Shown piece by piece: positions 5,888-10,765 of a stretch of 64,000 bases of DNA. Below the pieces are notes generated by a model. The model did no database searches. It was not told the origin of the DNA and saw nothing but the letters and a program-made list of their open reading frames with translations. This stretch comes from Myxococcota bacterium. GTDB taxonomy: Bacteria; Myxococcota_A; UBA9160; SZUA-336. Each line of letters opens with the position of its first letter. Within the stretch, counting starts at the first letter, position 1. The translations under genes were made by a program, and so were the position numbers. Location of the stretch: positions 672,001 to 736,000 of the forward strand of contig CBDFGR010000002.1 of NCBI GenBank assembly GCA_965247115.1. The letters run 5' to 3'.

Positions 5888-7792
5888 CTATTCGACGCCA
5901 AACGCGAGCAGCACGTTGCCTGGGGCGGTCAGGGTGATGTTGTAACCGGATCCCATGAACAGCATACCCCCGACGATCGCCGGCCCATGGCCACCGATCG
6001 AGCCCCCCCTGGCTCGCACACCGTTCACCGTCTCGTACTCTTGCATGGTGTTGTATTCCCACAGGACCTCGCCGTCCGCCGTCGAGTACGCGCGCAGGGT
6101 GCCGTCCCTGGCCCCTGCGAACACAACGCCGGGGATGACCGTGGCCGCCCCGAACAGTCCCGAGCTGCACCAGGTCGCCTCGGGGTCGGAGCAGTTCGTC
6201 GGCTTCGCGTGCGTCGTGGACCAGACCCGCTCGCCCGTCGCTGGCCGGAGCGCGACCATCGCACCCGTCTCGTCGGTGTCGCATTGGATCCCCACGAACT
6301 CCTCGGCGGCACCGGCAGAGCATACCGCGAGGGGTCTGTAGTAGAGCTCTCCATCCGCGGCGGCGCCCATGCCGGAGCCTTGTGGCCACACTCCGTCACC
6401 GGCCTGCGCGACCCACAGCACAGCGCCGCTATCGTCGGGGTCCAGTGCCGTGATCCTCCCGCTCTCTTGTCCCGCGATCAGAATCTGGCGCCCGTTCGGC
6501 AGCGTGTACAGGACGGGCGACCCCGACACGTCGTCGTTGCGATTCCGTATGTGACCGGGGCAATTGATCGCGCGCTCGGCCTCGGTCGTCCCATCTCCCC
6601 CGCAGTTCTGATCGTTGGCCAAGAGCTGGGTCGACCAGCGCCTCTTGCCGGTGTCGAGGTCGAAGGCGATGACGGCGTCACTGGAGCCCGAGTCCGGCAC
6701 ATCGATATAGCCATTGCTCGTACCGACGTAGAGGACGCGGCGCCGGTAGTCGAGCGTGGGCGCCGCCCAGATCGCGGCACCCGATGGGCCGTACAGCTGC
6801 GTGCCGGCGGAGTTCTTCCTGATCGGCCTGGGACGTTCCGGGATTGTGTAGGTCTTCCAGATCTGCTGGCCGGTCTTCACGTCCAGGGCCACCACGCTGC
6901 CCTGGGACGTGCAGCACTCGTACGAGGGGTTGGAGGGGCGGACCTCCTCGTACGAGCCTACGGGGACATACAGGCGTCCCCCCTGGGCATCGAGCACAGG
7001 CGACCCCGAGATCTTTGCCGCGCTATGGTCGTCCACGCGCACCGTCCACAGCGGCTCGCCCGTTTCCGCGTCTACGGCGTGGACGTTCGGCCCCAAATCC
7101 CCGAAGTACGCGGCGTAGCGGTCTTGCGACCCGGGCACGGTCCCCACGTTGACGGCCGTCACGACGGCTTGCCCGGCCTCGAAGGACCAGTGCACGCAGC
7201 CGGTCTTCGCGTCGAGCGCGTACACCATCCCGTTGTCGCTACCCACGAATACCCGACCCCCAGCCACCGTCGGCTGACCCCGGACCTGGCTGCCCTCCGG
7301 AAAGCCGAACGCCCACTTGCGCCGCAGCCGCGGCACTTGCTCGGCCGTCAGCCCCGCCGCAGCGGACGGCTGAAAGCGAGCGCTGGACGTGGGATCGGGG
7401 CTCATGCCGTTCCAGTGCGGCCCGGCCGACGGATCGCCCATCGGCATGCCACTGGCGCAGCGGTTCGGCATCGCCGCAGCCGAGCGGTCCGCCGCGTTTC
7501 CGAACGGGCGCCCGGTCAGGGACATGGCCAGCCCGCGCCTCTCCTGCTCCGAGAGCTCGCTCACATTGGCCGCCATCGAGCCGGTCGTCAGCGCCTTGAA
7601 CACCCGCTCCGGGGAGAACGCTCGGAGGGCTTCGCGACTGACCGCGCCGGGGGCGTGACTGGTCGCTCCATGGCAGACCGCGCACTGCTCCTCGAAGAAG
7701 AAGAGCCACCGAGAATCCGTCACCTGCGCCGATGTCGCCATCGGCAGCAACACCGTGACGGCGACAGACGCCACAACAAACCACCTCATCAT
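5888..7792 (-). CDS. Quinohemoprotein: cytochrome c + PQQ beta-propeller dehydrogenase (polyvinyl-alcohol dehydrogenase-like)
   Basis: Signal peptide, CAVCH heme motif, repeated ALDAxTG..W propeller blades, vicinal CC (YECCTSQG). Confidence 0.85.
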   Translation of the reverse strand: MMRWFVVASVAVTVLLPMATSAQVTDSRWLFFFEEQCAVCHGATSHAPGAVSREALRAFSPERVFKALTTGSMAANVSELSEQERRGLAMSLTGRPFGNAADRSAAAMPNRCASGMPMGDPSAGPHWNGMSPDPTSSARFQPSAAAGLTAEQVPRLRRKWAFGFPEGSQVRGQPTVAGGRVFVGSDNGMVYALDAKTGCVHWSFEAGQAVVTAVNVGTVPGSQDRYAAYFGDLGPNVHAVDAETGEPLWTVRVDDHSAAKISGSPVLDAQGGRLYVPVGSYEEVRPSNPSYECCTSQGSVVALDVKTGQQIWKTYTIPERPRPIRKNSAGTQLYGPSGAAIWAAPTLDYRRRVLYVGTSNGYIDVPDSGSSDAVIAFDLDTGKRRWSTQLLANDQNCGGDGTTEAERAINCPGHIRNRNDDVSGSPVLYTLPNGRQILIAGQESGRITALDPDDSGAVLWVAQAGDGVWPQGSGMGAAADGELYYRPLAVCSAGAAEEFVGIQCDTDETGAMVALRPATGERVWSTTHAKPTNCSDPEATWCSSGLFGAATVIPGVVFAGARDGTLRAYSTADGEVLWEYNTMQEYETVNGVRARGGSIGGHGPAIVGGMLFMGSGYNITLTAPGNVLLAFGVE

Positions 7793-7899: not shown

Positions 7900-8158
7900 G
7901 GGCCTCGTAGGGTAGGTGAGGAGAGTACCCATCCCGATGTCCGACTGCGTATCCCCGGTCAGGAGCTCCACGGTCTCCATGCCCCGACCCGCCCGCTACG
8001 CGCCGATCGCCAGGTTCGGACGCACCTCCTCACGCACGTGCCGGGAAGTGGCCCCCGGGAACATGATCAGGCCGTCGCCAATCTCACTGGCGAGCTTCGG
8101 GTCGAGCTGATCGGCGGGCAGCGGATCCAGAGTGCGGTTTGTCCAGGCGGATCGTCAC
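7900..8158 (-). pseudogene. Degraded remnant of an LLM-class oxidoreductase gene
   Basis: Minus strand reads KLASEIGDGLIMFPGATSRHVREEVRPNLAIGA*RAGRGMETVEL, resembling the LLM 'LAGEIADG...GAARAGR' segment; has an internal TAG, a frameshift and an RBS+GTG at 8158; lower boundary approximate. Confidence 0.4.
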
Positions 8159-8186
8159 TCTCCCTTCCGGTGTGCGGAGTTTCCCG

Positions 8187-8192
8187 TACAAT
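8187..8192 (+). promoter_or_regulatory. Putative -10 box TACAAT, 6 nt before ATG 8199 (leaderless transcript candidate)
   Basis: TACAAT-GGGCTC-ATG with no Shine-Dalgarno in between. Confidence 0.45.
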
Positions 8193-8198
8193 GGGCTC

Positions 8199-8837
8199 AT
8201 GGTACAGATCGTCGTTCTCGATCCGTCGGCGTCGCCGCGTGTCACCACGCGGCCCTTGGCCGACCGGCCGACCTCGCTCGTAGGCGCGCGGATCGGCTTC
8301 CTCAGCAACAAGAAAGCCAATGCAGACCTGCTCCTAGACGCGCTTCGGGGCCTCCTGCTCGACCGACTCGGCGGCTTCGAGACCCTTCGAGCCGAGAAGT
8401 CCGCCCCGCTGCCGGCTCCCAAAGAGGTACTCGAGGAGCTCGCCGGCTGCGACGCGGTCGTCAGCGCGATCGCCGATTGAGGCTCCTGCACGTCGTGGAG
8501 TCTCCACGACATGCTGACGCTCGAGGGGCGCGGTGTCCCGACCGCCCTCGTCGCGAGCGACGAGTTCGCGCCACTCGGCCGAGCCGAGTCCATCGCGCGC
8601 GGTCTGCCCGGTCTACCGCTCGTCACGGTGCCGCACCCGCTCGCCGGGAACCTGTCCGAGCTGGTGCGCGCCAAAGCGTCTGGGTGCGTGGACGAGGTCG
8701 TCCAGGTGCTGACCCAGAACGCCCAGGAGCTCGGCGCGCGCTATGAGCCGCGCTTTCAGCAGCTCGCCGAGCGCCGGCTCTCGCAAGACGCGGTCTGCAC
8801 AGACGCCGTTTGCGCCATCGATCCCGCCTACCGGTGA
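8199..8837 (+). CDS. UGSC-motif selenoprotein (212 aa, Sec94 encoded by TGA 8478-8480)
   Basis: ORFs 8139-8480 and 8511-8837 share one frame; readthrough gives DAVVSAIAD-U-GSCTSWSLHD (UxxC); SECIS-like hairpin follows directly. Confidence 0.85.
8488..8514 (+). promoter_or_regulatory. Bacterial SECIS-like hairpin
   Basis: GCA-C-GTCGTGG-AGTCT-CCACGAC-A-TGC; apical loop begins 18 nt after the TGA and has GU at loop positions 2-3. Confidence 0.75.
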
Positions 8838-8898: not shown

Positions 8899-9939
8899 AT
8901 GAACGCGCGGCGCGTCACCCTCGACGACTCCCCCGAGGCCGTCGACGCGTACTTCGCCGAGCAAGGCTGGTCCGACGGCCTTCCGATCGTCCCGCCAACA
9001 CCGGAGCGGGTCGAAGCCTTCGTGGCCGCGGCGGGGGGAACGGCCGAGCGCGAGCTCGGCGCGGTCCCGCCCCGAAACGGCATTGCGACGCTCGAGAAGC
9101 TCGCGATCAACGCGGTGATGGCGGGTTGCCGACCCGAGTACTTCCCTGTTATCACGACCGCCATCGCGGCAATGCTCGAGGAACCCTTCAACCTGTACGG
9201 CGTCCAGAGCACGACCCACCCGTGCGCGCCTTTGGTGATTGTGAACGGTCCCCTGGCCCACCGACTCGAGCTGAACGCACGCTACAACTGCTTCGGCCCC
9301 GGCTCGCGCGCGAACGCCACCATTGGCAGGGCGATCCGGCTGATCCTGTTGAACGTCGGCGGCGCCGCCCCGGGCGTCCTCGACCGCGCCACCCAGGGCC
9401 AGCCCTCGAAGTACGCCTTTTGCATCGCGGAGAACGAAGAAGAAAACCCCTGGTCGCCGCTCCACGTCGAGCGCGGCTTCGCGCCGGACGACAGCACGGT
9501 GACCGTGTGCGGCGCCGAGAACCCGCACAACATCAACGATCACGTGAGCGATACGGCGGAAGGCATCCTCGTCACGGTCGCCGCGTCCATGGCGAACATG
9601 GGCTGCAACAACGCCTACCTGTTTGGCGAGCCGATCCTGGCACTCGGCCCGGAGCACGCCGCGCTGTTGGAACGCGACGGCGTCGGCAAAGACGAGATCC
9701 GCCGCTTCGTGTTCGAACACGCCCGCATCCCGCGCGCGGTGTGGGAGCGGGGCGGGATGTTCGGGATGTCGGGTGCGCGCACCGATCTCTTCCCCGATGC
9801 CGACGCGCTGCCCATCCTGCGGCGGCCTGAGGACTTGATCGTGATCGTCGCCGGAGGCCCCGGCCGCCACTCCTCGTGGCTGCCGACCTTCGGCGCCATG
9901 ACGCGGGCGGTTACGCGGAGAATCGAGAGCTCCGCCTAA
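8899..9939 (+). CDS. Conserved uncharacterised 'GWSDGLPIVPPT' protein, usual partner of UGSC proteins
   Basis: Motifs GWSDGLPIVPPT, NAVMAGC, ANATIGRA, AENEEENPW, IVAGGPG; directly downstream of the UGSC gene. Confidence 0.8.
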   Translation: MNARRVTLDDSPEAVDAYFAEQGWSDGLPIVPPTPERVEAFVAAAGGTAERELGAVPPRNGIATLEKLAINAVMAGCRPEYFPVITTAIAAMLEEPFNLYGVQSTTHPCAPLVIVNGPLAHRLELNARYNCFGPGSRANATIGRAIRLILLNVGGAAPGVLDRATQGQPSKYAFCIAENEEENPWSPLHVERGFAPDDSTVTVCGAENPHNINDHVSDTAEGILVTVAASMANMGCNNAYLFGEPILALGPEHAALLERDGVGKDEIRRFVFEHARIPRAVWERGGMFGMSGARTDLFPDADALPILRRPEDLIVIVAGGPGRHSSWLPTFGAMTRAVTRRIESSA

Positions 9940-9992: not shown

Positions 9993-10765
9993 ATGCTGCG
10001 TTTCGAGGAGTACGCGGAAAAGTACGAGACCATCCGGATGCGGCGCGAGGACGGCATCCTGGAGCTCACGTTCCATACGGGGGGTGACACGCTGCAGTGG
10101 GGCTCCAGCCGCACGCGGAGTTCCCAGAGGCGTTCCGGGACATCGGGAGCGATCCCGATAACCGCGTCGTGATCGTGACGGGGACCGGCGAGGGCTTTTC
10201 GGGCCCGCACGCCACGCCCGATCGCTCGCTCCACCTGACGCCCGCGCAGTGGGATCGCGTTTACTGGGAGGGCAAGCAGCTCCTCATGAACTTGCTCGAC
10301 ATCGAGGTCCCGATGATCAGCGCGATCAACGGGCCGGCGCTACGCCACTCCGAGATCCCGCTCCTGTGCGACATCGTGCTCGCGGCGGAGGAGGCGGCCT
10401 TCCAGGACTCGGCCCACTTCCCGAACGGCATGACCCCCGGCGACGGCATGCACGTGGTCTACCCTCTGCTGCTCGGACTAAACCGGGGCCGCTACTTCCT
10501 GCTAACGGGCCAGACCCTCTCCGCGCGGGAGGCGCAGGCGATGGGACTCGTGAACGAGGTGCTGCCGAGGGACCAGCTGCTCGAGCACGCTTGGACTCTG
10601 GCGCGCGAGCTCGCCCAGAAGCCGCGCCTCGTACTGCGCTACAGCCGCGTGCTGCTGGTCCAGCAAGTAAAGCGACAGATGCAGGAAATGCTCGGCTACG
10701 GCCTCGCGCTCGAGGGGTTGGGCGTCGCGGATGCGACGCCACCGGAGGCCGCCTCGACAGGTTGA
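9993..10765 (+). CDS. Enoyl-CoA hydratase/isomerase family protein (frameshift at ~10100)
   Basis: GGAGGGG RBS + MLRFEEYAEKYETIRMRREDGILELTFH joins PMISAINGPA...GLVNEV after adding one G to GGGG 10099-10102 (~257 aa). Confidence 0.85.

Follow-up and report, generated by a model that had tools for sequence, protein, structure and literature searches.

The locus described here raises the question of whether an in-frame TGA ends a gene or is read as selenocysteine (Sec) and, in the latter case, what the resulting protein does. It lies in a stretch of 64,000 nucleotides (the window) from a Myxococcota genome (G000, 98% complete), where two open reading frames, 8139–8480 and 8511–8837, share one frame whose sole interruption is the TGA at 8478–8480, just as the initial annotation had described. 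The features of the gene are as follows:

8199..8837, + strand: UGSC-family gene, predicted selenoprotein of 212 aa when the UGA is read through; an alpha/beta fold of flavodoxin-like type is predicted
8478..8480, + strand: in-frame UGA, putative Sec94, placed by the model in the loop from strand 3 to the next helix
8487..8489, + strand: Cys97, which closes the UxxC motif; conserved without exception in 108/108 aligned sequences
8796..8813, + strand: Cys200 and Cys205 (CxxxxC), which may shuttle electrons, in a C-terminal tail modelled with low confidence
8187..8192, + strand: TACAAT, 6 nt 5' of the start codon, weak candidate for a -10 box of a leaderless transcript

Read-through from ATG 8199 gives 212 residues with the motif U94-G-S-C97, the Sec94/Cys97 protein that had been proposed for this locus, and the product scores 158.7 bits against Pfam UGSC PF24696 (cut-off 25) and 129.2 bits against NCBIfam NF041046 (cut-off 125). 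Since the family is catalogued under both models, the gene is, by its sequence, an added member of it and not a new selenoprotein. UGSC proteins have been known since 2007 (PMC1976440) and, with 255 sequences, are counted among the most abundant selenoproteins in Global Ocean Sampling data (PMC2398784); they are listed in two reviews (PMC9312934; PMC13188914), and the relevant passages of the more recent one, from 2026, still describe them as uncharacterised. The passages on UGSC considered here draw no link to PrdB or GrdB and name no function, although other papers, subscription ones among them, and supplements may contain more.

TTG 8139 was considered as an upstream start and rejected because homologues begin at a shared methionine corresponding to ATG 8199. 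No ribosome-binding site was seen before this ATG, and a scan for consensus promoters and terminators returned 0 sites. TACAAT is also found 6 nt before the ATG in a Myxococcota MAG relative (L016), and three other loci (L017–L019) have TTGACC and a weak -10-like box just 5' of the ATG; the upstream boxes in the window and in L016–L019 suggest leaderless transcripts. A gene for a cytochrome c and PQQ beta-propeller protein (5888–7792 of the window, - strand) is divergent from the UGSC gene and is absent among the recurring neighbours of the family.

The TGA itself is not a base error, because a contig assembled from another study (run X5) keeps it: this contig spans 8196–8584 with 11 differences, 0 of them at 8478–8480 and 0 in the hairpin described below. 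The contig from run X1 shows 0 differences and is possibly the source sample itself; contigs from runs X7 and X9 are not counted, as their differences are listed only in part. TGC, TGT or TGG at 8478, which the initial annotation had named as speaking against selenocysteine, is seen in neither the X5 nor the X1 contig. All five UGSC genes of the source genome have TGA at the Sec column, and 79 outside loci, drawn from the best 80 of 401 relatives, contain 92 UGSC hits with 44 TGA, 46 TGY and 2 without the motif, so that no codon other than TGA or TGY occurs where the motif is present, as had been expected for position 94; since the motif itself supplied the patterns by which the loci were sought, and kin do not count as independent, these counts and those for the hairpin overstate the case. 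In 21 genomes of kin, 28/30 matches hold one TGA and the remaining 2 are fragments, while the closest named relative among the matches listed, the MAG L016, is 79% identical and also has TGA.

A hairpin lies directly downstream of this codon:

8488..8514, + strand: bacterial SECIS-like hairpin; upper stem 8492–8499/8503–8510, GUC loop 8500–8502, 19 nt after the UGA

The inverted repeat reported earlier at 8492–8510 is present and is extended by GCA/UGC (8488–8490/8512–8514), but its 9-base arms leave a 1-nt loop and cannot fold as such; likewise, the 18 nt first given between UGA and loop applies to an alternative fold of 7 bp with an AGUCU loop, whereas the 8-bp/GUC form stands at 19 nt. The hairpin has a minimum free energy (MFE) of -16.6 kcal/mol (z -2.7), equalled by 3/200 shuffles. 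The bSECIS model, as far as its description in PMC13188914 goes, comprises a loop of 3–9 nt, a stem of 4–16 bp, a G within the first two nucleotides of the loop, a distance of 16–37 nt from the UGA and an MFE of at most -7.5; the hairpin here, with a 3-nt loop that opens with G, a stem of 8 bp, a spacing of 19 nt and -11.1 for its upper stem, lies within every one of these bounds, which upholds the geometry originally claimed. Across 112,873 TGA triplets genome-wide, only 10 are followed by a Watson–Crick stem of at least 6 bp with GU at the same position, three of which belong to UGSC genes and one to a UxxC protein. At G000 C3:1796737 (+), a UxxC motif in a context that we take to be DsbA-like is followed, at the spacing seen here, by a hairpin of 8 bp with a GU loop, and likely marks another selenoprotein.

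The loop distinguishes TGA genes from Cys genes. Over 86 distinct sites, the genome's own included, GU is found in the loop of 45/46 TGA genes vs 2/40 Cys genes, and the pair +18/+24 is kept in 46/46 TGA genes (29 G-C, 17 C-G) vs 24/40 Cys genes; the Ser codon that forms the loop, a synonymous choice, is AGT in 41/41 TGA genes vs 0/15 Cys genes, against a genome background of 1978/13536 (15%). The contrast is given as counts and no weight is placed on a p-value because kin are not independent. It is the pattern that SelB recognition predicts and not the one expected of protein constraint, and by this comparative measure the hairpin behaves as a SECIS element.

The machinery named for a search in the initial annotation was largely recovered: selA (521.9 bits), the tRNA-Sec gene selC and selD, the latter with its own TGA, are present in the source genome, and selB exceeds its cut-off but lies in two frames (G000 C2:1656156–1658112; L003) owing to a one-base insertion relative to the same-genus genome G152, where selB is intact. 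Because both halves are 90–94% identical to G152 and 4/61 orthologues tested, selB among them, are split in this assembly, the insertion is probably an assembly error; if it were real, the strain could not decode UGA. A PrdB-like gene with a PF07355 hit (G000 C2:1679031–1679772; L105) is also split into two frames in the same assembly. In another genome, G157 (93% complete), TGA-bearing UGSC genes are present and a selB match is absent at E<=1e-60. The stop-like codon at 8478 thus very likely encodes selenocysteine, with insertion deduced from codon, hairpin and machinery. That the TGA is a true stop, whether in a pseudogene or in a gene that is split, or results from an error of sequencing, is highly improbable: the frameshifted selB and other indel breaks in the assembly speak for it, and against it stand the independent contig, the TGA common to 5/5 paralogues and 44 outside genes, and hairpin features confined to TGA genes.

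What the protein does is best approached through the adjacent gene, which the initial annotation had missed and which is the best clue to function:

8899..9939, + strand: partner gene, 346 aa; conserved D26, N71, C77, T106, N139, R144, D162, C175 and E178

The partner finds no match in Pfam or NCBIfam at E<=0.1, not even to the pyruvoyl PrdA/GrdE family, although its relatives form 5,733 clusters at 50% identity. By eye, it matches the 'Unknown_1' domain drawn as a fusion to UGSC in Fig. S1A of PMC2398784 (2008), differing in that UGSC and partner are encoded separately at this locus. For 87/92 UGSC hits and in 74/79 loci, a partner gene is found no more than 400 nt away on the same strand, and all 5 paralogues of the source genome have one beside or fused to them (a fusion in one case); it is missing at this distance for 5/92 hits, and in 4 Dehalococcoidia loci it is absent within 6 kb. 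Fusions are frequent as well: 53 of the 74 partner homologues longer than 400 aa (from the best 150) carry UGSC sequence, which is the complete domain in 18, is confined to the stretch after the Sec site in 31 and to the stretch before it in 4, so that 35/53 are cut at the Sec site, and both orders of fusion occur. In a fused paralogue at L015:7198–8934, the motif reads C-U-G-S-C and the hairpin takes another form, with a loop of 6 nt at 17 nt.

The partner has also been joined to redox domains, each a single case among 75 proteins scanned: a thioredoxin-reductase-type domain in P0220, a ferredoxin:thioredoxin reductase beta domain in P0272 and, in the source genome (L013), an AhpC/TSA-like CxxC domain that scores weakly (22.7 bits, under the cut-off of 26). 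The last belongs to a paralogous pair at L013:6798–8890, where it is N-terminal in the partner; genes near this pair are presumably suf Fe-S assembly genes. The partner model has a pLDDT of 96.7, and its whole chain found no match in the PDB at E<=0.001 with Foldseek; its best VIA Z, 5.7 over 80–90 residues (encapsulin/capsid), is at the level of a common arrangement. Such weak matches are no proof of a new fold for the modelled protein. Searching the PDB by sequence, with profiles of UGSC and of the partner, returned no hit at E<0.2, and in the ESM Atlas the partner led only to its own unnamed clusters, while UGSC gave no usable hit outside PF24696.

The UGSC model (pLDDT 89.8) consists of five strands alternating with helices. 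The matches listed for it are flavodoxin-like or Rossmann-like, with a best Z of 10.6 and no thioredoxin entry among them; judged by these matches, the protein is probably flavodoxin-like rather than Trx-like, the fold proposed for it in a passage of PMC2398784. It resembles the catalogued family in scoring over both cut-offs, in the UGSC motif, in the in-frame UGA with SECIS and in the 'Unknown_1' association, and this subfamily differs by a C-terminal extension of ~40 residues with CxxxxC beyond the Pfam model. CxxxxC occurs within the last 45 residues of 26/68 homologues and a Cys within the last 6 residues of 39/68.

The Sec segment is similar to that of PrdB-like proteins. HHalign against 18 PrdB-like sequences from one phylum (30 GRDB-hit loci less 12 without the motif) gave a probability of 85.8%, E 5.4e-6 and a score of 45.8. 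The alignment spans 75 columns, of which 16% are identical, and keeps both Sec and the Cys at +3 in register; of 30 controls made by shuffling or reversal, none exceeded 19.1, and three other flavodoxin-like families reached 12.9 (REC), 9.7 (B12-binding) and 26.0 (FMN reductase). UGSC shares with D-proline reductase PrdB and glycine/sarcosine/betaine reductase selenoprotein B (GrdB; PF07355 GRDB) a UxxC that comes after a strand and before a helix, with a comparable motif further downstream. According to the sections of PMC11229817 concerned, PrdB uses its Sec to attack the substrate proline while PrdA holds it, and the U151C variant is inactive; the same source shows a separately encoded larger subunit, which the partner would be for UGSC. 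The differences are that the partner is not recognisably a pyruvoyl proenzyme by sequence and that UGSC has many Cys forms. By analogy, UGSC may work like PrdB, yet it is no GrdB/PrdB member, because 0/108 UGSC members match PF07355 directly at E<=0.1 and there is no recognisable pyruvoyl subunit; given that the partner lacks a Pfam match, PrdA/GrdE included, the substrate-activation chemistry would have to differ.

The near-obligate pairing, the fusions and the PrdB likeness favour a model in which UGSC and the adjoining 346-aa protein form a two-subunit reductase, UGSC being the subunit that carries selenium; to this model we would give an even chance. SelB would bind the GU-loop hairpin and Sec would enter at position 94, as in the established bacterial pathway; UGSC and its partner would bind each other, as pairing and frequent fusion suggest, and the partner, to go by the remote homology of UGSC to PrdB, would bind and activate a small organic substrate. 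The Sec94 selenolate could then attack this substrate and cleave or reduce a bond in it, in the way PrdB acts on proline bound to PrdA, after which Cys97 would resolve the adduct to a selenenylsulfide. A thioredoxin-type chain, suggested by the fusions, would re-reduce it, in the present subfamily possibly via the flexible Cys200/Cys205 tail. A point against this reductase is that about half of the family uses Cys, whereas the Cys variant of PrdB is reported as inactive in the pertinent part of PMC11229817.

Gene neighbourhoods add to this picture only in outline. Clustering of neighbours over 84 loci, with 37 cluster representatives scanned and ORFs called mechanically, found no third conserved gene and none beyond about 10/84; the recurrent ones, each in at most 10 loci, include crotonases, CoA-transferase III, acyl-CoA ligases and dehydrogenases, as well as SDRs, luciferase-like monooxygenases, amidohydrolases and transporters. 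No prd or grd genes were found among the recurring neighbours of these loci. The neighbourhoods point loosely to organic-acid or xenobiotic catabolism, and such varied genes name no substrate. In the window, a crotonase-family gene (9994–10765) follows the partner, with an apparent start at ATG 9994 and a frame change near 10100 that is probably another indel artefact. Tandem arrays of two or three UGSC–partner pairs are seen in groundwater Deltaproteobacteria, Binatia and Chloroflexi (L029, L041, L043, L045, L057), and Cys-form pairs in haloarchaea and Archaeoglobi (L026–L028, L030, L032–L035), several by DUF6282, crotonase and CoA-transferase III genes. In Microbacterium and Agromyces (L053, L055, L061, L082), the genes after a Cys-form pair are those for aconitase X and an ABC transporter, an arrangement that may offer a handle on one substrate.

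Among the other functions considered, a dedicated electron carrier fares best and is nonetheless unlikely, at about one chance in four. Here, C77 and C175 of the partner would do the chemistry, and Sec94/Cys97 would do no more than re-reduce them, as thioredoxin does for peroxiredoxin or Msr. The retention of C77 in 116/123 and C175 in 115/123 partner sequences is consistent with this, as are Cys forms as common as Sec forms, partner Atlas clusters with automatic names such as 'thioredoxin family protein', and the partner fusions to AhpC/TSA-like, TrxR-like and FTR domains, which could replace UGSC. The modelled fold, which does not look thioredoxin-like, argues the other way, together with a Sec segment resembling PrdB, whose Sec is a nucleophile, and with the AhpC/TSA-fused partner of L013, which still adjoins a UGSC gene.

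A role as a two-subunit iron–sulfur enzyme of the hydro-lyase type, in which Sec94/Cys97 and partner C77/C175 would coordinate a cluster or metal where the two subunits meet, with no redox cycling, is rather improbable. Its main attraction is structural: class I Fe-S fumarate hydratases, in their N-terminal/alpha domain (6uqb, 7xky, 6mso), are the best Foldseek hits of the partner model (E 1.2e-3, probability 0.90, TM 0.31) and give its longest VIA alignments (181–188 residues, Z 3.9–4.0, rmsd 5.3–5.5). The match is weak, however (TM 0.31, Z about 4, 6–12% identity), falls below significance and lacks sequence-profile support, as profile–profile comparison with 25 fumarases yielded 17.9 where shuffled controls gave 10.8–19.0; fumarate hydratases ligate their cluster by three Cys, whereas the partner has only two that are well conserved. 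Aconitase X neighbours 4 actinobacterial loci, one paralogue lies near apparent suf genes, and a small CxxC domain without a Pfam hit, which we take to be NifU-like, occurs as a fusion in P0193 and as a neighbour in 7 loci, all in keeping with iron–sulfur chemistry; the thioredoxin-system fusions fit redox cycling better.

That UGSC is a stand-alone oxidoreductase is more improbable still, for the UxxC motif, the Trx-like fold suggested in a passage of PMC2398784 and the 4 Dehalococcoidia loci without a nearby partner are outweighed by a model that does not look thioredoxin-like, pairing in 87/92 hits and fusions in both orders.

Returning to the two-subunit reductase, its fullest form, which we advance tentatively and put somewhat below an even chance, would be an undescribed class of selenium-dependent reductase, in which a minimal PrdB-like Sec subunit docks on a catalytic subunit without a clear PDB relative, is fed by thioredoxin and, through its paralogues, reductively cleaves different small organics in aquatic and soil bacteria and haloarchaea. 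In practical terms, this locus brings out an annotation gap: many database records of UGSC proteins end prematurely at the UGA, and Pfam lacks a model for the partner family. 'Function unknown' becomes a bench question, namely which reaction UGSC and its partner catalyse together, and the natural Cys forms of the cultured, non-pathogenic genera Sphingobium, Microbacterium and Natrinema make it testable without Sec expression. If the proposal is true, it would provide a function for a selenoprotein that ranks among the most abundant in the ocean and would extend proline/glycine-reductase chemistry beyond pyruvoyl enzymes.
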